Assembly (NCBI GenBank): GCA_951406725.2
Contig: OX597826.1
Location: 63,798,001 to 63,862,000 of the forward strand
Length of the DNA: 64,000 bases
Reading direction: 5' to 3'
From: Octopus vulgaris
Taxonomy: Eukaryota
Shown here: piece after piece, positions 9,293 to 55,965 of the stretch
Layout of the letters: the number at the start of each line of letters is the position of its first letter
How positions within the stretch are numbered: position 1 is the stretch's first letter
Made by a program: the position numbers and the translations under genes
Notes under the pieces: generated by a model
What the model was told of the DNA's origin: nothing
Databases searched by the model: none
The model's input: only the letters and a program-made list of their open reading frames with translations

Positions 9293-11411
9293 ACTACCGC
9301 AGTCAACCTCATGGGGCTTGCACCCTACCTTGAGAAACACTGATATAGATCTATTCCAACAATACCAAGTCCTTTCTGAATCTAACTTCCATCAGCTGTG
9401 AGTATTCAAATCCGAATACTACAACTCACACTAGCATAGTGAAAATTCAAATAAGATTTCATCACTCATCCTGACTACTTTGTATGACACCCAACCCTCT
9501 CAGGTCAGTGTTAATTGAGTAGATCTATGATCAAAGGCATTCCAGTTATGGCCATTCCATCTTAATATATATCCAAAACTTCATTACTTTAGTCAGTTTT
9601 ATATTACGGACTGCATTACTACTTTGTCTTTTGTTTTATTTTACTTATTAAGACAACAGCACAGGCATGGCTGTCTGGTTAAGAGGCTTACTTCCTAACC
9701 GTGTGGTCTCAGGTTTAATCCCACTGTGTAACATCTTGGGCAAGTGTTGTGGCTTTGGCAGTGGATTTGGCTGACGAAATGGGAATGTGTGTATTTGTTA
9801 CCCTTGTCTAGATATCATGGGATGGTTGTAAATGAGCATCACTGTCATAAATGAGGTTGTTAGTGTCCAGTCTTCCACAGAAAAAGCTGTCTAGCTATGT
9901 GGAAATATCATTACCTTGCCAAGGAACAGTTCTAGGTTGGCAACAAAAGCATCGACCCATAGAAAATCTGACATGACAAATTCCATCAGACTCATGCAAG
10001 TATGGAAAAATGGACATTAAATGATGACAATGATTATGAACAGCATGTTATCTCTCATTAGTCTTCCTGCTGCTCTACACAACCAGACAGCTACTGTTGC
10101 CACTTGCTTCTTTCTAGTCTCTCTGCCCCATTCCATCTAACCTTGTGTCTTGAAAGTCTCCACCCTGATACCTCATCACCACTATTTTCAACACTTCCCA
10201 GCTCCACCTGATCCTTCTCTTCCAAGATGTGAATAGTTATATAACTCCTATACAGCAAGAAACCCGTTCGGCTCCAGTCCTCTTCTCTTATACTTTACCA
10301 TTCTCTACTCTTCAACATCTGGCCTAAAGTTGTTCCTTTAGGGTTCCTAGTCTTGCAAGCTGCATTAGTGACCTTGCTAATGCCATGAAAAAAGCATCCA
10401 GTACGCACTGTAAACTAATTGATTGTTAGAGCATTCATCCATAGAAACCATGCCAAAGCAGAAATTGGTGCATGATGTAGTCCTTATACCATCAGATACT
10501 GTCAAACCATCCAATCCATGCCAGCATAAAACACATTTTGAATTTGAATTTTAGGCTTTACTTAAAATGATAAAAATTTAGTTTAGAATCATTAGTGGTT
10601 ATAATATCTCCTATTTTCAGTTTGTTCTAGATTTTATATGAAATCAATATACAGTGTGCAATGGGTAAATTGTTGCCATTTTATATTTTTAAATTTTATG
10701 CATACACATTGTTTTTGATTTTGTCAACTACACAGTATAGTAGGGTCAGTTGGGCACCATCTGTGAGCAAAACAGCACCATGTTGCAATTCACTCTGCCA
10801 GAAATTTGGAAATGACATACTGCTTGGCATTCACAGCAGAAGCTCCAATATGAACATTTCAGAGTGTTTGGGTGTCAATCTGAGGACATGTACTGAGAGT
10901 GATAAAAATCAAACAGCCAGTCAACATCATGGTGTTTGGAGCGATTACTAGTAGTGACAACTTTCATCTTCCCACACAGCCTCAGACTTGAAAACAGAGG
11001 CCTACATCAAGTGCATGGAGGAGGTAGTACTGTTCTGGCTCAAGAGGGTGGTTGCTGGAAGACCCTATGTCTGGCGATAGGACTCTACACCATGCCACAC
11101 AAGCAGGAGAACCCAGTCATGGCTATCAGACAATTTCTGCAACCACATCACACCTAGTGTCCGTCCATCTAACTCCCCAGACTGCAACCCCCTTGATTAT
11201 TGTGTGGGGTGCAGTTGAGTGGGAGACCAACAAAACTACTAGTAGTACCAAACATGGTTGAAGTCAATGGTGATTTTATTATTAAATAAATTTACTCTTT
11301 AGTATTTCAAGATATTTTTCTGTAATTTTGATAAATATATCTGTTAAAATGAGATGTCAGTGTTATTTTCATTTTTGTGTAATTTAGACGACAGTTTATT
11401 AATTGCATCCA

Positions 11412-11418
11412 GTATGTA

Positions 11419-11455
<37 letters not shown>

Positions 11456-11935
11456 GTATATGTATATATATGTATGTATATGTATATGTATGTATATATA
11501 TGTATATGTATGTATATATATATGTATGTATATGTATGTATATATATATGTATGTATATGTATGTATATATATATATGTATATATATATATGTATGTATA
11601 TATATATATGTATATATATATATGTATGTATATATATATATGTATATATATATATGTATATATATATATGTATATATATATATGTATATATATATATGTA
11701 TATGTATGTATATGTATGTATATGTATATATATGTATATGTATGTATATGTATATATATGTATATGTATGTATATGTATATATATGTATATGTATGTATA
11801 TGTATATATATGTATATGTATATATATGTATATATATGTATATGTATATATATGTATATATATGTATATGTATATATATGTATATGTGTATATATATGTA
11901 TGTGTATATATATATGTATATGTATGTATATATAT
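11412..11935. repeat. Compound (TA)n/(TATG)n/(TG)n microsatellite, about 520 bp
   Basis: Continuous purine-pyrimidine alternation of T with A/G. Confidence 0.98.
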
Positions 11936-13210
11936 GGAATTTGATGGCCAGACTGTGTTTACATAGGAGCTTCCTTTATGGATCAGTTTTCTTTTTCTGG
12001 CATTTTTCCATGGTCTAGCAAATGCCTGGTACCTGGTTTGCCAGGTTTAAACTGGATATATCTGGCCCAAATATTCTGCTTGTTTTGTGTTCAAACTAGC
12101 TAGATCTGGTTTCTCACCTACCCTACAATGTCATTTTGAAAATAAACAATCACGTCATCAAAATCTCAAAGCTACAAGATAATTCATGATTAATTCAAAA
12201 CAAGGTGAATAAATAAGCATAACATTTATCTCCTATAGAATGACACCAGACATAAAACCACCTCCCTCCTCTCTCAAATACACTCCTACTCAGTCGAAGG
12301 TTTTTTTTTTTCCTTTTCTCTTTTTTATTTTGTCTTGCACGTTACTTGGCAACCTCATTAATGACAGTGTCATGAAAAAATAATGGGATTAGTACACTCT
12401 TTAAAGTGGTTGGCATTAAGACATTGGAGCCTGACGCAGCTCTGCAGCACATTGAGCTCTGTCAAAGTGTCCAACCCGTGTCAACATTAAAAACGGGTGT
12501 TAAATGATGTCGATGCATTTGATTGAGTGATGTAAATGCTAAAGAGATAAATTGTGGTCAAAACCACGTAAATAACAAGATGAAAGTGTACATTAGGTTA
12601 AAAGCTTTCATTATCTTCTGAGAAACGTGATGTATTTAAAATTTTAAATCATACTCTTAGCAATGAAATCAGTCGTTATCTTAGACTTAATTATAGCTAT
12701 AAAAAAAAATTTTTTTAATTAAAAAAAAAGGGTGTGGAAACAACTCATTAAACAGAAAGTGGGGATTGTGATCTTTAGCTGTACAGTAACAACTCTGTCA
12801 GCAGTTCTCAAACTAATGAATATCAGAGCCTTCTGAAAATATTAGTAAAATTTTATGGCACCCTTCACCATGGTATTCGACAAGTTTTAAAAATAACTGA
12901 AAGTTTTCTTAATTTTATCAGAAATGTCAATTTGTCTGCCTCTTTTTCAGTCCTTCTAGCCCTCCCTCCAACCCCATGTAAAACATTCACCTACCACCAC
13001 AGCTATTCACCTTGAGCCAACAAGGAGGCTTCTGTGTGGTTGTATGGCTTTCTAGAAATAGCAGTCAAATCTCTCTCAAAATAATTCTATCTTCAAAATG
13101 GAAAGGCAATGGATAATTGCCATCATTATCATCATTTGACATCTCTGTTCCATGCTGGTATGGGTTGGACAGTTTGACAGCATTTGATGGACCCAAGAAC
13201 CACATTTGTA

Positions 13211-16023: not shown

Positions 16024-16191
16024 GTGGTTGTATACTGTCAACTTAACGTGACAGTAAGGGAATTACACCACCGCTGTTTAGCCCTAGGAAGCATCGACGC
16101 TTCCTGTCGGCCTTGACGTCGATGCTTCCTAGGGCTAAACAGCGGTGGTGTATTCCCTTACTGTCACGTTAAGTTGACAGTATACAACCAC
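16024..16191. repeat. Near-perfect inverted repeat (76/75-bp arms, 17-nt spacer) inside an insertion flanked by a 15-bp direct repeat
   Basis: Arms 16024-16099 and 16117-16191 differ by one indel; atatatagatactgt occurs at 16011-16025 and 16250-16264. Confidence 0.95.
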
Positions 16192-24619: not shown

Positions 24620-24870
24620 GTATGTGTATATATGTGTGAATGCATGTTTGTGTGTACCCCCCCTCTCTCTCTTTCGGAGAGGCACTGAGCACCTACACGC
24701 ACACATACACACACGGCAGTAACTTCCACCTACCGAATTCAATCACAAAGCTCCGGTCGGCTCGGGACTATAGTGGAAGACACCTACCCAAAGTGCCACG
24801 CAGTGGGACTGAACCCGAAACCATGTAGCTAGGAAGCAAGCTCCCTAACCACACAGCCATGCCCGCGCCT
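24620..24870 (-). mobile_element. tRNA-derived SINE, relatively young copy (family of the 36061 element)
   Basis: Minus-strand head aggcgcgggcatggctgtgtggttagg..gggttcagtcccactgcgtggcactttgggtagg; CpGs retained. Confidence 0.8.
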
Positions 24871-30717: not shown

Positions 30718-33700
30718 GTATGTATTTTAAATCCTCTCGTCATGGGTAGATTTTCGAGGGGTTTTTTTTTTTCTCAGTTGAAGTGTGGAGTCTGTTTTGG
30801 GGGTTGTTTTTTTTTATATATATATATATATATTTTAAATTTTAAAATGATAAAACTGAGTAGTTATTCATAAAGAAACACAGAGTAGTGACAAATTGAA
30901 TGTAAACATATATCGTAATGTTATTTTTCATTTGTTTGAATTCAAATTTAAGCTTTGGTGTGTTAGGCAATTTATGGGAAAACATTTCAGTTTTATGAAT
31001 TTTGAAATTTCAAACTAAAAGAAAGAAAAAATTAAGAAAATTTGCATCAGAATCCCCTGTCTGGTTACTATTGTTTACAGGTTTATTAGCTATCAGCTGA
31101 TGTTGTTTGTTGCAACAATTGTAAGCAATTCATCTACACAGTCCACAGGTGTAGCTGTGTGGTTAAGAAGGTTGCTTCCCAACTATGTTGTCTTGGGTTC
31201 TGTCCCACTGTATTGCACCTTAGGCAATTGTCTTCTACTTTAATTCCAGGCCTGCCAAAAGCCTTGTAAGTGGATTTTGTTGACAGAAACTTGAAAGAAG
31301 CTTGATGTGTGTGTGTATACCCTTCTCTTGACATCACATGATGGTTGTAAATAATCATCATCATCTTACAAGTAAAGTTGTTCATTTCCAGTCTTCTGTG
31401 ACAAACCTGTTGGGCTATAGGGAAATATTCACCTTTGCTTGGTAACAGATGAGGGTAGGTAACAGAAAGGGCATCTGGCCATAAACATTTACCTCAATAA
31501 ATTCTGTCTTATCCATGTAAGCACAGTAAAGTAGACTGACTAATGTTAGCACTCAGTTTAATTCCTGTCTTTTTATCTGTATATGGAATTATTGTTGTTT
31601 AACCCTGGGTCAGCTGTGATTTAATAGACCTGTGATCAAAAACATTCAAGTCCATGACCAGTAATTTTTTTTTTTATTTAAGCATTGTATAATCACCATG
31701 CTTAATATTGTTGTTTAACCCTGGGTCAGTCCAGATGACTAAGCAGCCTTATGACTAAAGGCACTCCAGTGAAGATAGAGGAAGGCTTTGTGGTTAAGAA
31801 GTTTGCTTTGCAACCACACAGTTCCACGTTCATTTGGTTCCACTGCATGCTACCTTGGGCAGTTGTCTTCTACTGTAGTCCCAGGCCAACCAGTGTGTTG
31901 TGAGAGAATTGAAAGACAGAAACCATTTGGAAGTCCATAGTGTCTTTTTTGTGTGTGTTTTATCTTTTACTTGTTTCAATCATTGGACTGTGATCTTTCT
32001 GGGGCACTGCCTTGACGGGTTTTTGGTTGAACAAATCAACTCTAGTAATTATTATTTTTTTTAAAGCCTGGTACTTAATCTATTGGACTCTTTTGCTAAA
32101 TATTAAACGACAGGAATGTAAACAAACCAGCAGTGGTTGTAAGGTGATGGTTGGGGAGAAGCACAAAGACACACAGGCATAGGCGTGTGTGTGAGTATAT
32201 GTAATGGTCTTCTTCAAGATTCTGTCTACCAAATCCACTCATAAGACTTTGGTTGGCCTGGGACTATGGTAGTAGACACTTGCCCAAGATGCCATGCATT
32301 GGGACTAAACTTGAAACCATGTGGATAGGAAGCAAACTTCTATCACACAACCAATCTTGCACCTGTGTGTGTTTGTTTGTTCCCTATAACTTAGTGGTTT
32401 AGAAAGAAAAATCTGATAGACCAAGCTTGAGTCAATTTGTCTGACTTAAAATCCTTCAAAGGCTGTGAATGCCCCAGTATGATGGGGCACCTACAGTATC
32501 TGAAACAAGTAAGAAGATAGAAGATACAATAATAATATAAATAAAAGCAAGTAGAGGACACCAAAAACCATTTATGCTCAATAACTAAGTATTTTTTATG
32601 TGTTCTACAAGTTTGTAATACAGAGAATATGTCCTACTTGAATTTTGAGAAATGTTGCACATATTAGTGCAACCACAAATATGCCATAATTTTACATCTT
32701 CTTTTCCATGCTGGTATGGGTTGGAATAGTTTCCTTTTTTTTTTTTTTGGTTAAGGCAGTGTTTTACAGTTAGGATATGCCCATCGTGATGCTAGCTCTT
32801 TCAATCATTTCTTATAGCGTGTTGGGCTAAAACCCAGATATATGCACTCTATATATTTGTGAGTGTATTCGTGCATAGGTTGGTGGTGAAGGGTAGTCTG
32901 GTTAAAGAATCCTGTCCTGGGCCGAGTTTGTGCACTTTTGCAAACTTTGAGCTGCCTTAGACTTGTGATGACAGAAATTTGAAATTCATGGGATGCTACT
33001 GCTAGTGGGTGGTTGTAAATGAATGTCACCATCATGCAAGTGCTGTTCTTCATTTCCAAACTTCTGTGAAAACAGATTTAGTCATTGGGAAATATTAGCT
33101 TACTTAGCAACAGGTGAGGGTTGATGACAGGAAAGGCATCAAGCCATAGAAAATCCACGTCAAACTATATGAAAGGTTGCTGAATATGGAGAACGTGTGG
33201 GGGAGATAGAGACTACCCCAAGTAACTCCATCCAGCTGTGAAGTTTGATAGTATCTAAGGATATGAAGAAAGGGAAGCCAACCTGACCATCTAAGATAGT
33301 TACTGAGACACTAAAAATATCCAATGATGTAGAGTTAGGGCACATGCTAATCACTTACATGGTCAGTCAGGTAGTAGAGGTAAATGTTGGTGTTTTCCTC
33401 AATAACTGAATGAGATGAAGGATGGTTACCACAGATGATCTCTACATATTGGTTTCAAATTTTGGCACAAGGCCATCAATTTAGGGGGAGGGAGTTAAGT
33501 CAGTTTGATTGACCCCAGTATTCAACTGGTACTTATTTTATTCAACCCATAAAAGATAAAAGACAAAATCAACCATGGCAACATTTGAACTCAGAACATA
33601 AAGTCAGGCAAACTGCTTGGTGGCATTTTGCCCAGCATGCTGAAGATTCTGCCATCTTGCTGCTTTCCAGATGCCCTCTTCATATTGATGCAACTTCAGA

Positions 33701-43882: not shown

Positions 43883-43957
43883 GATTTTCATGTTTTGGCC
43901 AAGGCTCCACTAGTGGCTTTTCCTTTGGTTCCAATACTGCTGCTGTGAAACCTCTAG
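43883..43957 (+). CDS. NUP58: NUP58 penultimate FG exon (75 nt, GFSCFGQGSTSGFSFGSNTAAVKPL)
   Basis: catttcag acceptor, G|gttagt donor, phase 1-1; resembles vertebrate ..TFGFGTTNKPSG. Confidence 0.9.
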
Positions 43958-45411
43958 GTTAGTGGGTGGTAAGGTTTCCTGGATCTTTCTCTATCTTTCC
44001 ATTTCTTTCTCCTTCCCTCTTCCTTTCACTCACTCACTCACTCACACACCGACACCCCCCCCCCCCCCCACCTCTCTGTCTCTCCCTCCTCCTCTCTTTC
44101 TCTCTGCCTTCCACTCGATTTTCTTTATTTTTAAACCACACCCGTCGGACAATCAATCAATAAGCTGTTTGATAGATGGACCCTTCGTTGGAGCAATAAA
44201 ATTTGATATCCAACAACATACCAGTATTCTTCAATGACAGCAAATTCACACATGTAAAATAAAAAAAAAAAATAATTTTATATACTGCTTATAAAAGAAA
44301 CCAAAAAAAAAAAAAACAACCAAGCTTTCAAGTCTGCTGTTTTCCAATTTTGGCCTTAGGCTGTTTTTTTTTTTTTTTCTTTCTTTTCCTTCAATCCTCA
44401 TTGAATCATTAGTGCTGTGTAATGTAAACATTTCTTTACAAACAAGAACCAAATATATCTGCTTCAACAAAAAAGAAACGTGTACGCTTAACTTCATCTG
44501 CTGATACTTAAGAGATAGGGGAAGCAAATAAAAATATAATCATGCTCTCGACTTCTTCCTATAACCTGTCAACAAGAGAAAGGCAAAAATATTCTAGGCA
44601 TTAGACGGTTACTGGTTTATATTTACGAAACCATATTGATGAATATTTTTTTTTTTTCTTCTTCCTTTTAATAAAAAATATTTGAAGAATCAAACATGTC
44701 CTATTTTCTCTGCATCCATTAATATCTAAAAGAAGTAATTTGTCTTTCCTTTGTTGTGATGACGCTTAGAAATGTATTATTTCTGGTTGTTTGTCCCTTT
44801 AGTTTTTGCATTAGCTCCTGTCGTTGTTGTATATGTTGTCTGTGTTTGTACGTACATGTGTGCACCCATTCTATATTGCACATTTACAACTATATTTCTC
44901 TGTGTCCACATTGCTGTAATTTTGAAGAATTTTTGATATGATCGTATGCAATTTGTGTGTGAATGTGTGTGTGTGTATTGAATGAAGGTACATTTCATTT
45001 AATAAAAAGTTTCCTTTTCTTGACACAAATGTTGAACCAATTTGAAAATTTTATACACACACACACATTAGTTTAACTAATCAGATATGACAATGGTACT
45101 GTTGCAATAATATTTAGGTTTTGAAATAGATTTCAAAAGTACTTTTGAAATTAATTTTTGCAGAACAGTTTAAGATTTTTGGTTACTAGCCTGGGATACT
45201 TTCAGTAAAGTTACCAACATGATATTTAGCTACTGCTGGTGATTTTTCCAAATCATTTCTTATATTATTAATTATATAAATATAGGTAATTAAATGTTAT
45301 GAAAAACAAATTTGCTGTTAAATTCCCCAGTATTTATGAGGAGAAAATCTAATGATATGACGCTGTAAACTAGTAGATATTGTTTCATCATATACTTGTA
45401 CATAGATTCCT

Positions 45412-45546
45412 ATCATTTTTTAAAGTTATCCCTCGCATTTTCTATAGAAATTAGAGCCAGCACTGAGAGTATACAAAACATTCGTAACTCTCAATGCTGA
45501 CTCTAGTTCCTATAGAAAATCTGTTGAGATAACTTTAAAAACTGAT
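45412..45546. repeat. Imperfect inverted repeat (about 60-bp arms, short loop)
   Basis: ttttaaagttatc..attttctatagaaattagagccagcactgagagt pairs with actctcaatgctgactctagttcctatagaaaat..gataactttaaaa. Confidence 0.9.
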
Positions 45547-46293
45547 TCAATCACACTGCTAACATGATATTGACTTATAAACCCTTCTATATACTTGATA
45601 GAATACTATGGTTACATAACTAAATACGGTGTCCCTACCAGTGATTAATATGTGCCTACATATATTGATTGTGACAGTTGACACCTCTCACTTTCATATC
45701 CTGACATTTTAAAAATAATACCTGTATTCACTGTAGGAAGTATAATTATCATTTAAGGAGAAAATCTGGAAGAAATGTGGCACAAACTCAATTTTTGGTG
45801 ATATGACATCATCATCATCATTTAACGTCCGTTCTCCATGCTGGCATGGGTTGGACGGTTCGACCGGGGATCTGGGAAGCCAGAAGGCTGCACCAGGCTC
45901 CAGTCTGATCTGGCAGTGTTTCTACAGCTGGATGCCCTTAATTATATTAACAATAACAAATATTTCTTAGATTAGCACATGGTTATAAATTTTCAGGAGT
46001 CAGTTGAATTGATCTCATTGTATAACTGTTCTCTATTCTCATCAGACATAAGGGTAAAGAAAATCAAAACCAGCTCCTGGAGTTGACAAGAAAGAGATCT
46101 AACTAAATCCTTATCATTCAATGTCCATTTTCGGTGCTGGCATAGGATGAACAGTTCAGCAGGAACTGGTGAGCCAGAGGAGTGCACCAAGACCCTCTGT
46201 CTGCTTTGGTATGGTTTCTTTGACTGGGTATCCTTCTTAACATCAACCACTTAACTGAGTGTATTGGGTGCTTTTTATGTGGCACCAGCCCAG

Positions 46294-47985
46294 TGAGATT
46301 GTATAACATTTAAGAGAATATAGCTACAAATTGATGTAAAAAAATATTTAAATAAATTTTTATATATTTGTGTAATAGTGAGGGCAACACCAGTTATTTC
46401 TCTGTAATAATATATATTAATTATATCAAAGTTGACAGCTTACTTTGAGTTCAACTCCAGGTTAAGTTGTCCACTATACACACATACACATTCTGTGTAT
46501 GTGATGAAATTAAAATATAACAGATACACTTGCAGCATACTAGATAACAAGGAACCTTCTACATGGTCACTAGAAATAGCAGCCAAATCTCTTTTACGTA
46601 TCATATCTTAAATAAGGAAAGAACACGTTAGACAATGTAATTCTGGATACTCCTAAAAAGAAGTGATGGCCACACACTGAAGGCCTTTGAACCTGAGGCT
46701 AAAAGAATGATAATGAACTTTTTTTTTTCTTGCATTGGCCAAAAATACCCTCATTTTCAGTGTGAACATCTTGTTTACAAATAATATTTAATACTACTTA
46801 TATAGTGCAATGTTATTTAGTGATTTCTCCTACATATTTTTATTAACTTTAAGGTTTTTCTTAATATAATGTGTAGAACAAAGCATCACGTGAAGTGACT
46901 TCTGTTCACCCTAGTTGTTAATGTGTTTAAGTTTCACTTCAAATGCCTGATTCAACCAAATCACCCTTGCAGTCCATTCAATTACATAATTGAGTTATCT
47001 TGTTTGTCATTGGATTGTGCATCATGCTGGGGCACCATTTGAAGGGTTTTGTTGAATAAATTGACCGCAGTACATATTTCCCTAAGTCTGGTACTTATTC
47101 TCTCTGTCCCTTTTGTTGAACTGCTAAGTGATGGGGGCATAAACAAACCAACTCTGGTTGTCAAATGGTGAGAGAGACAAACACAATGACACATATTCTC
47201 AGATATGGCGGCGAGCTGGCAGAAATGTTAGCACCCCGGGCAAAATGCGTAGCCATATTTCATCGTCTGCCGTTACGTTCTGGGTTCAAATTAAGCCGAG
47301 GTCGACTTTGCCTTTCATCCTTTCGGGGTCAATAAATTAAGTGCCGGTTACGCACTGGGGTCGATGTAATCGACTTAATCCGTTTGTCCTTGTTTGTCCC
47401 CTCTGTGTTTAGCCCCTTGTGGGTAGTAAAGAAATATATTCTCAGATATAAGTAAAAAGTGGCATACATGGTGTTACATTTATTCCATGGTTCACAGGCT
47501 TCCACCACTCTTTCCATCTACCAAATTCACTAACAAGGCATTGTTCAATTCAGTACCTATTGTAGCAGACACTTGCCCAAGGTGCTGCACAATGGGACTG
47601 AACCCAAAACCATATGGTTGCAAAGTGAGCTTCTTACCAGCTAAACATTAAAATATTTCCTATCCTATACACTAACAGAGAAATTGAGAGAATGTAGTTG
47701 TCCATCAAAATTAACAATATATCAGTTGCTTTTCATAATTCCATCAGGAAGTGAGGAAGATGTTCTGATAAAACGCCTCTGTTTATCATATTTTTTTTAA
47801 TGCCATATAAGGCCAATTTGCTTTTACCTGGCACAGAAACCTATGTAACAGGTATGTATGAGTAGAAATGAGATTGTGTAACATTCAAGAGAATATAGCT
47901 ACAAACTGATGTAAAAAATATTTAAATAAATTCTGATACATTTTTGTGTAATAGTGAAGGCAACACCAGTTATTTCTCTTTAATA
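46294..47985 (+). repeat. Local direct duplication of about 116 bp (46294-46409 and 47869-47985)
   Basis: tgagattgt.taacatt.aagagaatatagctacaaa.tgatgtaaaaaa..gtgtaatagtga.ggcaacaccagttatttctct is present twice. Confidence 0.9.
47207..47435 (+). mobile_element. Young SINE (Meta/Nin-like core) with 14-bp TSD, nested in an older SINE
   Basis: TSD atattctcagatat at 47193-47206 and 47436-47449; head ggcggcgagctggcagaa..gggttcaaatt; core gtcgactttgcctttcatcctttcggggtc. Other copies at about 105, 33447, 38790 and 48280. Confidence 0.9.
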
Positions 47986-47986
47986 T

Positions 47987-48256
47987 GTTTGTTCCTTCTC
48001 AAGCCATGCCTAGCTCATAAGGGCTGGTTTCCTTGGCGTATAGGTTCCCCGCCTGGACGGGATGCCAGTCCATCGCAGGTGAGCTACAAGATGCAGGAGG
48101 AAAGAGTGAGCAGAAGTTCGCCATTACCTTCTGCCGGAGCCATGTGGAGCTTAGGTGTTTCGCTCATAAATACACACATCGCCCAGTCAGAGATTCGAAC
48201 CCGTGATCCCTCGACCGCTAGTCTGTTGCTCTAACTACTAGGCCATGTGCCTCCAC
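47987..48256 (-). mobile_element. tRNA-derived SINE with 11-bp TSD
   Basis: TSD ctctttaatat at 47976-47986 and 48257-48267; minus-strand head gtggaggcacatggcctagtagttagagc..gggttcgaatctc with A and B boxes. Confidence 0.88.
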
Positions 48257-50820
48257 CTCTTTAATATAGGATACAGTAAAAAGGCGGCAAACTGGCAGAA
48301 TCATTAGCACAATGGGCAGAATATTTAGCATTTTATCTGTCTATATGTTCTGAGTTCAAATTCCACCAAGGTCTACTTTGCCTTTTATCCTTCTGAGGTC
48401 GATAAAACAAGTACCAGTTGAATACTGGAGGTCAATGTAATTGACTTATCCCTTACCCAAAATTGCTGGCCTTGTGCCAAAATTTGAAACATGATGCAAT
48501 AATTGAGAAGTGTTAAATATTAATATAAGGAGTTGTATCAATTGAACCGAAATTTTGAGGGGAGTTAACTGTGAATTTTAAAGATAAGAATAATGTGGTA
48601 GTGTGAATTATTTTGTTGTATCTTGAATGGAAACTAGTGAATAGTTTTAAGAAATTTTATTCACTATAGGCATAGCTGGTTTTGAGTTCAGTCCCTTAGT
48701 GCCGCACCTTGGACGAGTGTCTTCTATAATAACCCTAGACTTACCTATGCCTGATGGGTGAATTTGGTAGATGGAAACTGGTTGCCCATCACTTATATGT
48801 GCTTGTGTCCTCCATCACTATTTGGTAATTAATGTTAGTTTGTTTACATTCTTTTAGTAGAGTAGCTTAACAAAAGGGACCAATAGAATATGTCAAGATA
48901 AGTACTGGCATCAGTGTGTTCAACGGAAACCCTTCAAGGCAGTGCCCCGGCATGACTACCATCCAATGACTGAGACAAGTAAAAGATAAAGATTATACTA
49001 TCTAACCATCCCAGTAAGCCAGATTATCTAAAAGCTACTTATGAACGATTCAGTTTGGAATTTAGGTGTAATTTACACTATCTGTTGTTGTTAAGTGTGA
49101 GATCTGTCTCACATATTGTAATATATAACTGCTTCAACATGCTGAACAAAATTACTGAAATCTTCTCCAAGAGCCATCACAGTTTTATTCATTAAGGTTA
49201 GTAACGGTGGTAGGTATGTATACATCATTATCATCATCATCATTACCACAGCTACTTTTCCCTGCTGGTATGGGTTGCACAGTCTTTATTGAGGCAGATT
49301 TTCTATGGCCACATGCCCTTGCTGTCTCCAATCCTCGCCTGTTTCCAAATAAGATAATGTTTCACCATGACTCACACTCGTTTACAATTATATGATGTGA
49401 AAGCAGAGAGACAGTAATACACATATTTATGTATGTAATATATATTTATAAACGGACTGCCATACAGGTTTTGTCAACCAAAATACTCACATGGGCATTC
49501 GTTGGCCTAAAACTATTGTAAAAGCCACTGCCCAAGTTGAACCCGAAACCATGTGGTTGGGAAGCAGACTTCTTATCACACAACCATGCTTTCACCTATC
49601 ATTAATTTAATTTGGTTTTTAAAGGATCGGGCTGCTCCCACTTTTTAATTTTTGTCAAGCAATTGAAAAAAGAGTCAGTTTAAAATACTGTCAGTGGTGA
49701 AAAAGTCCAGTGTGTAAATCTGGTCCATCACAGCATTGAATAAATTTCTCTGGGATAAAATACAAACCAACATTAGTATTGTTCTTAGAACAGCTTTGTG
49801 CTTACAACCCACCCTTCAGCTAAAGTAGAATTGACTTTATAGCTTACTTAGATATCCCTGAAAAATTGTTACGGATATCAACTTGTAAAATCGGAGCTTG
49901 TAGCATGGTTCTTTCCCGAAATTGCCTTTCTTTCTGTTGGTTTGAAATGTTCATAAATGCTATCATATGTTTGTAAGTCATAAAAGTAAATGGAATTTAT
50001 CATTATATTTCTTTTTTCTATGAAAAGAAAAAGAAAACTTTAAACTAAAAGTTCTTGCATTACTAAAAATATTAGGAGCCTAGTACCCCATTCTTCCCAT
50101 TTTTTTTTTTTTTTCTTTTCAATTTCAAATTAGAAAGTTATACTATTAGAATTAATCTAAGCTGAAATATTTGCGACATTTGTGCTTACTAAATTCACTC
50201 ATGATATAACTTCAGTATTACTAACATTAGTAACTAGGATTTTGAGTAGTTTTACTGAAAGCTACCTTTCAATGGGCTTAAATAATATTTTTCTGCAAAT
50301 GATTTTTAAAAAATTTTTATTTTACAAATTTTGGATTTTCTTTTAGCTTTTAAATTAATACCATATGTATGTTTAAATTTTAATCCATTTTCATTCAATA
50401 TTTTTTCGAATATGTAACTTTCATCCCATAACTGAAATTTATTTAATTTTTGGTTTTTTTTTTTTAATTGCCAGTTGTCTCCCTTGTCATTTTCATTTAT
50501 TTATTTTTAACATTTTCAAGACATTTTTGTACCATTTTTATTTATTTATTTATTTGTTTGTTTTTTTTTCTGTTAATTTAGTTTTTGTCTGAAATACCAA
50601 CTCATAATGTTTACTCATATACATCGTTAAATAAATTACAAATAATAATATTTTTAAAATCCTCAAAGACAGACAAACTAATAAAGCTTAATCCCCACCA
50701 CCCGCTTCGCCTCTCCCTTTCTGCCCATCACAACATATTAACCCTTTGAAATATTGTTTAATAGATATTTTAGCTATTCATAGCTTGTTTGTATTTTTTT
50801 TTTTTAAATCTGTTTTGCAG

Positions 50821-50922
50821 GTTGAAAATATTAAATTCCTGTGAAATTTTGGTCATGAGAGAACCGTCATTGTTCTTTAATGCAGTGCGTGTTCTCTTGT
50901 GGCCTTTTGACTTCTAGTGCAA
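50821..50922 (+). other. Predicted cryptic stop-containing (poison or alternative) exon
   Basis: T12..tctgttttgcag acceptor and CAA|gtgagt donor; after the phase-1 donor at 43957 it reads GGT TGA. Confidence 0.6.
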
Positions 50923-53900
50923 GTGAGTTTCTTATTCTAGTTTGGGTTGATTATCTTATTAAGTAAACTTAATTTAATTAAGGATTTTTTTCTTTTCCCC
51001 TTCCCTACTCCTTCCTTTCTGTGTGCGCCTGATTAAATAAAATATTTATATATGTGTGTATATATATTTATATCTATAGAGTATGGAAATTTTGCTTCAA
51101 TCTTCATCTTAATTCTTTTCCCAGTTAGAAATTTTTAAGTTGATTAAAATTTGAAATTTTAGTTTTTGTAAACTGAAATGGGGAGAGTGATGAAATGAAT
51201 AAAAACATTTTAAAAAATACAGTAAGAAGTTGAATTAAATTCAGTTAAAAAAAAAAAGGTATGAACATATCTTCTACTTGTTGCAGTCATTGGACTGTGG
51301 CCATGCTGTGGCACTGTCTTGAAGGGTTTAGTCAAACAAATTGACGCCAGTACTTCTTTTTTAAGTCTGGTACTTATTCTATCACTCTCTTTTGTCAAAC
51401 CACTAAGTCATGAGGATGTAAACAAACCAACATCGGTTATCAGGTTGGGGGGGAGGGACAAACACAACACAAAAACACACACACACATATATATACATGA
51501 CAAGCTTCCTCTCAGTTTCCGCCTGCCAAATTTACTCAAAAGGCATTGGTCAGCTCAGTAGAAGATACTTGCACAATGGGACTAAACCTATAACCAACCA
51601 CATGGTTGTAAAACGAGCTTCTTAACTCCATAACGAAGATATTCTAAATGTGAGAAGCAAAAAATTATTTCAGATTCCTTTCCTTTTTTCCTCTACTTAA
51701 TTTCGGTTTATGAAAACAAAATCCCAGTTGTAACCTCTTGAAATTTCAGTCTGGTGGAAGGAAGATGATTTCCATCTCTTATATATATATACACATACAT
51801 ACATATATAAATATATAATATGTATAATACATTCGATAGTTTTCTAAGGTTAGAATTAATTGTTCTTATAATCTTGCTCTTCTCTCTACAGTCATAGTGC
51901 TTCTTTGTTACAGCATGTGTGACATACCCGTTTTCAACAGACCCTATCTTTCTTCTAAACTCCAAAAAAGATTTCTTTCTAGACTCAACCATTTGATTTA
52001 CTTACTTCTGAATACACCTTGAGCTATCTTTCTTTTTGGTACTCTACTCATCAACTCCCTTACCTGTGTGACCAATCTCTTTTCTTCTGGTTTGAAACTT
52101 CGGCTCTGTATTCATTGGAATGTATCTGATGTTTCTGGCAATAAACAAGTTTAGAAACAGTAATATAACATATTACTACTTAACAAATTTTCCTATCCAG
52201 TTGGCTGGGTAACATTATTTTAAACATATCTTATAAATGAAAGGTTGTGTTTGCAAATAATTCCGTGGCCTGCTAGCAATTCTCTTTTCTATTTTGAGTG
52301 TGCTTAAGATTGCCAAACAATAATTATACAAATTTAAGATGTCTTTTTTTTTTTTAAAAAAGAAAAAGGACATTTTGTTTGTTTTCTAAAAGACTTAAAC
52401 AATAATAAATTATAATTATAGTATTTAATATTATTTTCTCTGTGATTACCAGTCTATTCTGCACTGGCTGTCATGCATGTTGCTTTCATTGGTTTTCATA
52501 AAATTTGCATGTCCTGGAATGCTGGATAAAATGCAATAATTGAAAAAAGAAAAAAAATGCTTGATCTATGACTAGTTTGTAGAGATTGTTTAATTTCAAT
52601 ATTATTGTCATATCATATATAACAAAGCTAAAACTTGCTAATGTTTTGACTTTCTAGTTATTTCTTATATATTTTATTTATTCAATGAATTGGGATGCTT
52701 TGTCTTTTCTTTGGTATTATCTTCAAACTTTATTAGTAACAGTTATTCAAGTGGTTCTTGAAGTACAAGGTAGCATCTGAGAGGAAGTGGGGGGACTAAA
52801 ACAGCATAGTAATTAAGTAGCTGTAGCCATGTTATATGTATATATATTTATATTCATTTGTTTTAAAGCTCAGACTTAACTCAATCAAAACGAATAGCTA
52901 AAATTCTGTGTATTCAGGACTTTCTCCTCTTGTACATCAAAAACTCCAACACCATTCTGATCAAATTGAAAATCCTACTGTTGAAACTATTAACACTGAA
53001 AATGTTATTGTCGGTAAGGTTACGGACTTTTTTTCCAGTCTACATGTAATATCAGTATGAAATTATGACTAATTGGTTGTCATAAAGAGAGAAGTGCAAG
53101 GTATAACAACAATAAAGGAGGTGGGTGTGGACCTCAACTTAACTATTTGTAAAATATGTGCTTAGTCTGTTACCATGGTTTCTTAACTGATTACCACAGC
53201 AGATTGCTAGGAGTATCATAAGTATTATCAAACACATACAATATTTTGATTGCTAAAGTAGAAGTATCCTTGGATTTTTTTTTTTTTTTCCAAAAGCAAT
53301 TCAAAACCTTAATTACTATAATGTTACCAGCAAAATAAGTTTAAGTGTTGTCTTATATTATGGTGGGTGGTCATGGAGATAATTAAAGCTTGTAAAGAGT
53401 ACAGTCAATTATATAAGATCCAGAAAGTTAAAAGGCAAAGTTGACCTTAGGGATTTGAACTGAGAACTGTAAATAAATACCAGAAATTTTGTCCAGCCCT
53501 CTAATGATTCTTTCAATTCATGGTCCTTGTAGTAGTCAAACACTAAGCTGTTTGATTACTGTTGAACGGTTTTCAATTAGCTGAACAACTCAAAAGGAAG
53601 TCAAAACTCTTTCCTTGGAAAGTCAACATTTTGTAACATGAATCCATGTTTTCATGACCAAGACAATTTTCTATATCCCAGTTTGCATAGCTATAAGTAG
53701 GTATGATGGGTAGGAATGAGATAGTTTAAAAACGTCTCAAACAATCAGGAAAGGAATCGGTTAAATTTTGACATTAAACGTATCCCCATTAGTATAATTT
53801 TTCTGCCACAATTTAGTACTATAAAGCACTAATATGCATTTGACACATCTGCTGAAGAGTGTGTTGCCAACTGCCTTGATTTCATCTTTGGCGATTACCA

Positions 53901-54277
53901 GCATCCAAAGATCTGACCTCATTATTTCTCTGTCTGTGACTGCCCATCTTCAATAGCATACAGCACATTTTTTATTTAAATTCTTCAAGAAAGGAAATAA
54001 ATTTTATTCCTACTTTACAAGGCTCATATGTTATGATTTTTATCAAAAGCATTTGTTACCTGGAATAAATATATTTAACCAAGAATTGAAAATGAGTTGC
54101 GCAAACTAAACTGGCCAGGGGTTTACCTTTCATTGTACATTGATTTTTCTGCATGAGACCCAGGTCAGCCCTGAGCAAATTTATGATAAGAAGCATTCTA
54201 ACCATGACCAGTTTATCTTTGTATGACATAGTCTTACATACACAAGTGTGATTTGATTGATATTTCAAGCCAAATAA

Positions 54278-54507
54278 CCATGGTTCTCAATTATTTTTGC
54301 CTATGGACCCTCTTTGATTCCTATTTCACTCAGCTGAACCCTCAAAGCCATTTGATGTTTAAAAAAAAAATCCTACAATACCATTGTAATTAAATAGGAA
54401 TTGTATAAAAAAATTTTAATATTTTGTGTACTGTGGAGATATAACCAATTTATTGCACATAAATTTCTACACAAAAATCTTATATGGACCTCAGTTGAGA
54501 ACCACTG
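54278..54507. mobile_element. Decayed hAT (Charlie-like) MITE
   Basis: Ends ccatggttctcaa / ttgagaaccactg; repeated ggaccc subterminal motifs; no clear TSD. Confidence 0.6.
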
Positions 54508-55033
54508 ATGCAGAGGGTCCCTGGAATTACTGTATTTGAAGGGAAAAATGTTATTAGTACATTAAAGCTTATGAGAGTCCTGACTTTGCATATAGCACCC
54601 TAGGACATCCTTTTGAGACAAGTTTTTGGGGAAAAAAAGTCCATCTTATATGCCATCAAATATGGTAGATATAGAGATTTAATATAACCTATAATACTGT
54701 CTTGAATCACACATTCCATTTCTGTGACTCCCACCTTTATCTGAACAAGGTATAAGGGAGCTTAATTGTTTCCTACTTTTCAAAGCTAGAATATCTAAAA
54801 TATAGAAACAGGATAGTACTAATGATTAAATGAAATTCTCAACCCTTCAGTGAATGTTAGTTCATTCAGAATTAAATAGGATAATTAGTGACTAGAAATA
54901 GTTTTAAAAGATCTTTCAGTTTGCACAAATTCAAGACAAAAACTAAATTTTTTTTTCTCTTTCACACTCACACATAAACAATTTATTGAAACTCCAAAGA
55001 ATTTAATAATGATAATATTTATATAATTTTACC

Positions 55034-55415
55034 TTAATCTTTTAGCATTCAGATCTGTCCAGTGTAATGCTTACTTATTTATTCACATTGTTATGAAAGA
55101 ATCATGCATTATCTCGAAGCTATGAGATTTCAGTGATACGATTGTTTATTTATAGAATTACATTGTAGGATAAGTGTGATAAGCTGGATCTGGACAGTTT
55201 AACTTTTTAGCATTCAAACCAGCCATATCCAGCCAAAATATTCTGTTTTATGTACAAACTGGCCAGATCTGGCCTCTGCCATCTACAGTATAATTTCACT
55301 CTAAAATAAACAATCATCAACGTCTCAAAGCTAGAAGATAATGCATGATGAATTGAAAAACAATGTGAGTAAATAAGCATTACATTTGACAGAATAATCT
55401 GAATGCTAAAGAGTT
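55034..55415. mobile_element. Head-to-head pair of piggyBac-like MITE copies
   Basis: A minus-orientation partial copy at 55034-55200 abuts a plus copy at about 55201-55415, both of the 56936 family. Confidence 0.8.
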
Positions 55416-55491
55416 ACATGAAAAGTTGTGGTTTATGCATTTGTTGAAGTTCTGTTTCCTTATTGACTAATTACAATATTTTTTTTTCCAG

Positions 55492-55608
55492 GCTGTACAG
55501 AAAAAAAAAATCGATTATTAAGTAAAATACATTGCTCGCATGTTCTTCAATTAAAATTTTAGCTTCTCTTTAAAAAAAGCATGTATTACAATGTTTAGAA
55601 TCTGATGT
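55492..55608 (+). other. Predicted alternative acceptor or cassette upstream of the terminal exon
   Basis: Branch-like gactaat near 55465, T9-ccag acceptor; in-frame TAG at 55560-55562; possible gtgagt donor at 55609. Confidence 0.45.
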
Positions 55609-55726
55609 GTGAGTGTGTGAACATTGTAGAAGTGAAATTAATCTTTCTGTATACGAATAATATTCTGATTAGAATCGATTCTGTCGTCACAATCCTTGAA
55701 TTTCTTTTGTCCCCTGTTTTTGTTAG

Positions 55727-55965
55727 GAACAATCCTCAATACACCAGGGAATATATTCGGTACATCAGGAAGCACAACAACACAGCCAGGACTGCTCGGT
55801 ACACAACCCAACGCCGCAACTGGAGCAGCATTCTCATTTAATAATCTGTCGACAACGCAACCCAACTTTGCTACCGGAGATGGACAACAGTTAGCTGGAG
55901 GCCAAAACAGAGCTTTTCAATTACAAAAACCACCTCCACCAGCCAGTAAGCGGGGCAAACGGTAA
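55727..55965 (+). CDS. NUP58: NUP58 terminal coding exon ending AFQLQKPPPPASKRGKR*
   Basis: Pyrimidine tract plus tgttag acceptor, phase 1; the C-terminus matches vertebrate LQLKKPPAGNKRGKR; TAA ends at 55965. Confidence 0.96.

Follow-up and report, generated by a model that had tools for sequence, protein, structure and literature searches.

A stable stem-loop within a predicted stop-carrying exon of the last Nup58 intron in Octopus vulgaris, a possible splicing control element

Introduction

The last intron of the gene for nucleoporin p58/p45 (Nup58) of Octopus vulgaris holds a stable stem-loop which lies wholly between two splice-like sites. This raises the question whether the structure is a microRNA precursor, an element that influences splicing or decay of the host message, or a product of neutral sequence change. 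For the analysis a stretch of 64 kb was used in its whole length, here called the window, and all positions refer to it unless another locus is named.

Results

Fold and strand bias of the stem-loop

The window encodes Nup58 on the plus strand. Most exons are 100% identical to Octopus vulgaris proteins, and when the exons between 5448 and 55965 are joined, the reading frame has one stop, at its end. The stem-loop is situated in the last Nup58 intron (43958-55726, 11.8 kb), upstream of the last coding exon (55727-55965, plus strand), which encodes the C-terminal low-complexity tail ending KRGKR and is lost in short isoforms.

At positions 50851-50904 of the plus strand, 54 nt form 22 pairs, including five G:U pairs, around an 8-nt loop at 50874-50881. 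All 14 positions of the segment 50851-50864 are paired with 50891-50904 (three G:U), and two and then six further pairs follow, with single-nucleotide bulges at 50890 and 50867. The 5′ arm is purine-rich and the 3′ arm is U/G-rich with one A only. Refolding thereby reproduced the position and the pairing proposed in the initial annotation, and it yielded a minimum free energy of -29.5 kcal/mol on the plus strand with a z score of -9.17, none of 200 dinucleotide shuffles folding as well. For the reverse strand the respective values were -13.3 kcal/mol and -2.54, with four of 200 shuffles as good. Among 10,658 windows of 54 nt on the plus strand the hairpin ranked second for stability, behind a perfect palindrome at 16082, and its strand difference of -16.2 falls between the 0.1 and 1 percentiles of these windows (-17.6 and -9.9). 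The best 54-nt windows of ten internal Nup58 coding exons were far weaker (-6.1 to -16.4), and none of 300 shuffles of the candidate exon described below passed -20.4. The shuffles, the window rank and the comparison with coding exons thus show that the hairpin exceeds compositional chance.

In a context of 351 nt the mean pairing probability of the 22 pairs was 0.97-1.00 from 10 to 60°C. As the stem is predicted to stay closed over this range, it is no simple thermometer, and a switch would need some protein. Long-range pairing of the hairpin arms or the exon with the tandem donor (see below) or the last acceptor was found in none of six tests below p 0.16, and the best alternative partners among 869 tiles were all weaker than the local stem. 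Another apparent stem, which covers the candidate acceptor (50812-50847, -8.3 kcal/mol), was dismissed as not robust, its partner changing in wider context; real acceptors are also often predicted to be paired.

All five non-Watson-Crick pairs are G:U on the transcribed strand, and there are no transversion mismatches. By our own estimate such an outcome has a chance of about 1 in 32 under strand-neutral transitions, and less if transversions are counted. It had been argued that wobbles which work only on the plus strand indicate selection on the RNA. The energy bias stands (-29.5 versus -13.3 kcal/mol), but the inference is weakened by antisense-biased hairpins elsewhere in the window. An inverted repeat in the last intron (45420-45538) reaches -65.7 antisense versus -53.1 sense, with -34.7 on the minus versus -23.7 on the plus strand for the window at 45452, and the hairpin at 24810, biased by 19 kcal/mol, -24.0 versus -5.1. 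Since strong hairpins of the window may favor the antisense strand, strand bias alone is no proof of selection on RNA.

Some of the other inverted repeats are themselves conspicuous. The repeat at 45420-45538 comprises about 50 bp, is present in a single copy in the window and has z scores of -12 (plus) and -13 (minus). It is long enough for pri-miRNA geometry on either strand and may represent what is left of a MITE, or a miRNA that has escaped annotation. The palindrome at 16082-16134 with perfect 19-bp arms is the most stable 54-nt fold of the window on both strands. A long TA/TG-rich microsatellite at 11400-11950 is the source of many spurious G:U-rich folds on the plus strand.

The candidate exon and its splice-like sites

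The stem-loop takes up about half (54 of 102 nt) of a candidate alternative exon at 50821-50922 on the plus strand, which carries stops in all three frames; it begins 30 nt past the acceptor and ends 18 nt before the donor. Splice sites were scored with a small matrix self-trained on Nup58's own 13 acceptors and 13 donors. The candidate acceptor, with a polypyrimidine tract of 12 T (50794-50805) and the AG at 50819-50820, scored 12.6, within the range of the real sites (6.0-18.3) and above 10 of the 13. The candidate donor CAA/GTGAGT (50920-50928) scored 7.6, also within the gene's range (6.7-13.2) but weak, above one of 13 real donors; it matches the donor consensus at 8 of 11 positions. Splice-like sites around the hairpin are present; the "cryptic exon" assumed in the initial annotation keeps the status of a prediction.

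The upstream exon ends in phase 1, so that inclusion of the candidate exon would add a Gly and then, as first full codon, an in-frame TGA (50823-50825), with the protein end ...AVKPLG; a further TAA follows three codons on. According to the 50-55 nt rule for nonsense-mediated decay in vertebrates, a message including the exon is predicted to be degraded, as 97 nt separate the TGA from the next junction. ATTAAA/AATAAA at 51032-51041, about 110 nt downstream of the candidate donor, represents a possible poly(A) signal; AATAAA occurs 0.97 times per kb in Nup58 introns.

Site pairs as strong as this one were found twice in 49,676 sense intron bases and once on the antisense strand, which corresponds to about one such pseudo-exon per 50 kb of antisense sequence; with the thresholds set at the weakest real sites, 35 sense pairs faced 38 antisense pairs. 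The candidate exon by itself is thus at chance level. The sole other sense pair of this strength lies in the second-last intron (32756-32925). The chance that one given hairpin lies wholly within such a pair amounts to 0.3%, and relaxing the thresholds by 2 bits raises it to 0.7%. As several strong hairpins have to be taken into account, the chance of the coincidence becomes a few percent, a post hoc figure.

Search for known RNA families, copies and homologs

Rfam covariance models, SECIS, snoRNA, IRE and miRNA families among them, gave no match at the gathering score in the 64 kb and none at E values up to 10 in the region 50760-51060, and an ARAGORN search of the sequence returned nothing. 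A SECIS element, considered because of UGA and AUGA, was rejected: the TAA follows three codons on, Rfam was negative, and the 3′ side lacks the GA of the SECIS consensus. H/ACA and IRE elements were likewise dismissed, as their defining motifs were absent by eye and Rfam was negative. With regard to a MITE remnant, for which multiple dispersed copies would speak, no second copy of the hairpin exists in the 64 kb. It sits in a stretch of 1,669 bases without self-repeats, which ranks fifth in length among such stretches of the gene.

The exon and hairpin were aligned locally with eight distant Nup58 intron stretches (three complete last introns, one partial, and four further ones located toward the 3′ end of the gene). 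None of the eight exceeded the shuffled maximum, at distances too great for a strong test, and the distant last introns contained no hairpin of similar strength (best z -3.9). A mollusc-like Nup58 (L004) has, in a different intron, a hairpin at 2793-2846 with a z score of -9.5 which holds a GTAAGT donor-like site; it has no similarity to the octopus hairpin.

Assessment as a microRNA precursor

Exonic hairpins can be Microprocessor substrates, as those in the DGCR8 mRNA are. The octopus hairpin resembles canonical precursors in length (54-56 nt), pair number (22), loop size (8 nt) and an apical UGU, and its size falls within the ranges of MirGeneDB 3.0, which are about 49-80 nt with arms of 20-27 nt, about 19 pairs and a loop of 8 nt or more (PMC11701709). 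In contrast to such precursors, it has no 11-bp lower stem: all 13 positions outward of the stem ends 50851/50904 had a pairing probability of 0.00 at each of five temperatures. Microprocessor cuts about 11 bp above the basal junction (PMC7049713). A cut at this distance above 50851/50904 would leave an 11-bp stub, and a cut at the stem base would have no lower stem beneath it. For the latter cut, one of four processing motifs is present (the apical UGU), and basal UG, CmR and CNNC are absent. Such motifs are helpful, not obligatory, and for the 114 bilaterians shown, unpaired flanks are highlighted as a peculiarity of Caenorhabditis (PMC11701709).

Suboptimal hairpins with short stems, such as mir-451, can be processed with a neighboring helper hairpin (PMC10576077); a known helper pri-miRNA was not found near the hairpin (Rfam, 64 kb). 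Many novel miRNAs have been reported from octopus (PMC9699675). A look-alike among squid precursors was not seen by eye in 139 rows of the 147-row sheet with headings (PMC8125070). A 10-base motif was absent from the searched supplement parts of PMC9699675, PMC11701709, PMC8125070 and PMC12479628, and an octopus entry may exist all the same. The geometry of a mirtron was rejected as well, because the hairpin lies inside the candidate exon and its ends coincide with no splice site. The missing lower stem together with the absence of three of four Microprocessor motifs makes a canonical miRNA unlikely, and the earlier proposal of a novel miRNA or Microprocessor site is not borne out.

Short Nup58 isoforms and a tandem donor at the last intron

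The penultimate coding exon (43883-43957, plus strand; 75 nt, in frame) is followed by a tandem donor at 43958-43974 with GTTAG at 43958 and GTAAG at 43969. Use of the distal donor, or read-through, adds a TAG (43960-43962) and yields the ending ...PLG-stop, 6 nt before the junction. The distal donor scores 2.8, which is low on the gene-trained matrix; its use is suggested by the conservation of the tandem arrangement. A metagenome scan with a four-bivalve alignment led to 18 loci. Four of them contain the PLG exon, and three of these four distant invertebrate loci show the same tandem donor (L006, 4209-4224; L007, 2307-2322; L011, 2319-2335; not L008); their matched segments were 51-57% identical to the bivalve query.

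Short isoforms ending ...(K/R)PL(G/V/R) are annotated for nine of 130 proteins in one set and 20 of 51 in another. They derive from O. vulgaris, O. sinensis, O. bimaculoides, Argonauta, three Mytilus species, two oysters, scallop and limpet, and no vertebrate Nup58 representative in the 130-protein set has such an ending. Among the PLG-stop forms are the RefSeq/GenBank entries XP_029644295.1, XP_014786233.1 and CAI9732025.1. The oysters possess two distinct short endings, PLG-stop and PLV-stop, which suggests that alternative splicing at the last Nup58 intron takes more than one form. The proteins P0158, P0162, P0165 and P0131 comprise the oysters' second ending and a cephalopod-like sequence (P0131) with an alternative tail of 15 residues following KPL. 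These two cases may point to additional alternative splicing of the last intron; the P0131 tail had no match after any of the 591 AGs in the octopus intron. The penultimate exon itself is skipped in annotated isoforms (P0005, P0010 and P0012), such skipping being seen in three Octopus species, and the matching PLG exon is likewise skipped in oysters, scallop and limpet.

Tandem donor or read-through fully explains the annotated PLG-stop isoforms, so that these are no proof of the candidate exon. Judged from the sequences, an old conserved route to a short Nup58 protein would need no cryptic exon. The tandem donor, a firmer finding than that on the hairpin, possibly marks an ancient p45-like form.

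Discussion

In the model which we tentatively favor, the last intron of Octopus Nup58 contains a poison or decoy exon, here predicted, with an early stop, and the hairpin serves as a structural element controlling it. Folding would take 54 of 102 nt out of the path between the splice sites and so halve the effective exon length. At the same time the purine-rich arm, which we take to be enhancer-like, would be buried against the arm containing UCUCUU, presumably silencer-like, and the stem would thereby help to set how often the candidate exon is recognized. A message including the exon would have its stop 97 nt upstream of the last junction and is predicted to undergo nonsense-mediated decay or to be retained as a decoy. 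Full-length Nup58 would be lowered in this way, in addition to the older route by which the tandem donor would yield a short p45-like protein.

The model is favored by a hairpin beyond its shuffles, second of 10,658 windows and wholly inside one of two strong pseudo-exon pairs, by the five G:U pairs all on the transcribed strand and the single copy in a repeat-free stretch, and by the wide annotation in molluscs of short isoforms that end at the donor of the last intron. It is weakened by the chance level of the pseudo-exon, by the tandem donor as explanation of the PLG-stop isoforms, by the lack of homologs in the eight distant stretches and by antisense-biased hairpins as strong or stronger in the same intron. 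A structured splicing or decay element, as the initial annotation had suggested, is plausible and our preferred reading; the exon that it would serve does not by itself exceed chance.

Nearly as credible as this poison or decoy exon is a neutral origin, in which a short inverted duplication decayed by transitions and lies by chance in an unused pseudo-exon. Other long inverted repeats without evident role (16082-16134 and 45420-45538, the latter more stable and antisense-favored), the frequency of equally strong pseudo-exons on the antisense strand, the absence of an Rfam match and the result of zero homologs in eight distant stretches are all in line with it. It has to account, however, for a coincidence with a top-scoring pseudo-exon expected for only 0.3-0.7% of single hairpins, and for imperfect pairs which are G:U on the sense strand in five of five cases without any transversion mismatch.

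In our estimation it is unlikely that the hairpin acts as part of the 3′ UTR in a short, p45-like Nup58 message. As a double-stranded RNA site for a Staufen-, ADAR- or export-type protein, in a terminal exon with poly(A) near 51036 or in a retained last intron, it would set the stability or location of the message. With the stop at 50823 the hairpin would indeed become 3′ UTR sequence, a hexamer resembling a poly(A) signal is present at 51032-51041, and short isoforms are annotated in three Octopus species. In human NUP58, moreover, mutant isoforms ending at exon 13 still reach the pore, the next intron possibly serving as 3′ UTR (PMC8561638). Against this, AATAAA is common in Nup58 introns, a donor-like site closes the candidate exon, and the 3′ arm with its single A is a poor editing target given the preferences of editing enzymes. 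We consider it highly improbable that the hairpin is a young or non-canonical miRNA precursor or a Microprocessor site destroying the host message. Its size, pairs and loop fit MirGeneDB, the apical UGU is present, and octopus is rich in novel miRNAs (PMC11701709; PMC9699675), but these points are opposed by the unpaired flanks, a Caenorhabditis trait among the bilaterians shown, the absence of basal UG, CmR and CNNC, the lack of mirtron geometry and of a known nearby helper, and the 139 squid rows without a look-alike by eye.

The predicted poison or decoy exon has counterparts of several kinds. Cassette exons coupled to nonsense-mediated decay (SMNDC1, RBM39, RBM3) are likewise short, carry a stop more than 50 nt before the junction and lie in a long intron of an essential gene. 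Their hosts are splicing factors, whereas the host here is a nucleoporin and the exon a prediction. With the decoy exons in retained introns (SF3B1 intron 4; Parra et al., PMC6097662) the candidate shares the character of a cryptic non-coding cassette, the position deep in a large intron (here 11.8 kb) and a strong acceptor. The SF3B1-type decoys are highly conserved and supported by junction reads, with no mention of a hairpin in the abstract; the octopus exon is predicted. Closest in structure is the MIR-derived exon of FGB (Kralovicova et al., PMC4615370), which is also largely folded into a single hairpin whose stability and loop influence inclusion. Its splice sites are in the lower stem and it is derived from a repeat, whereas in octopus the splice-like sites flank the stem at distances of 30 and 18 nt, and the 64 kb contain the hairpin only once. 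Vertebrate Nup58 and Nup45 (Hu and Gerace, 1998, as cited in PMC11289042 and PMC2173148) arise from one gene as splice forms differing only in unstructured regions, a feature shared with the molluscan isoforms. The molluscan short form differs in having a defined end, at a ...PLG junction where the tandem donor is conserved.

A decidedly improbable extension would make the last intron a three-way switch between full-length p58, a stable short p45-like form from the tandem donor and a decay-bound form whose exon is gated by the hairpin. A double-stranded-RNA or export factor reading the hairpin would then feed Nup58 back on pore stoichiometry.

Titles and abstract openings on Nup58 splicing contained no octopus Nup58 hairpin or poison exon, and those searched, with most subscription papers outside the search, contained neither the short Nup58 form nor the tandem donor. 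If neutral, the hairpin represents ordinary intron decay. Should the element prove real, dosage control coupled to splicing would extend to the nuclear pore, by way of a structured poison or decoy exon in a nucleoporin of the central channel, and a concrete element would be at hand for testing RNA regulation in cephalopods. The firmer by-product is a short Nup58 form of cephalopods, bivalves and a limpet which terminates at one and the same junction, together with a tandem donor that distant invertebrates have retained; at the sequence level, the two together point to an ancient p45-like isoform.
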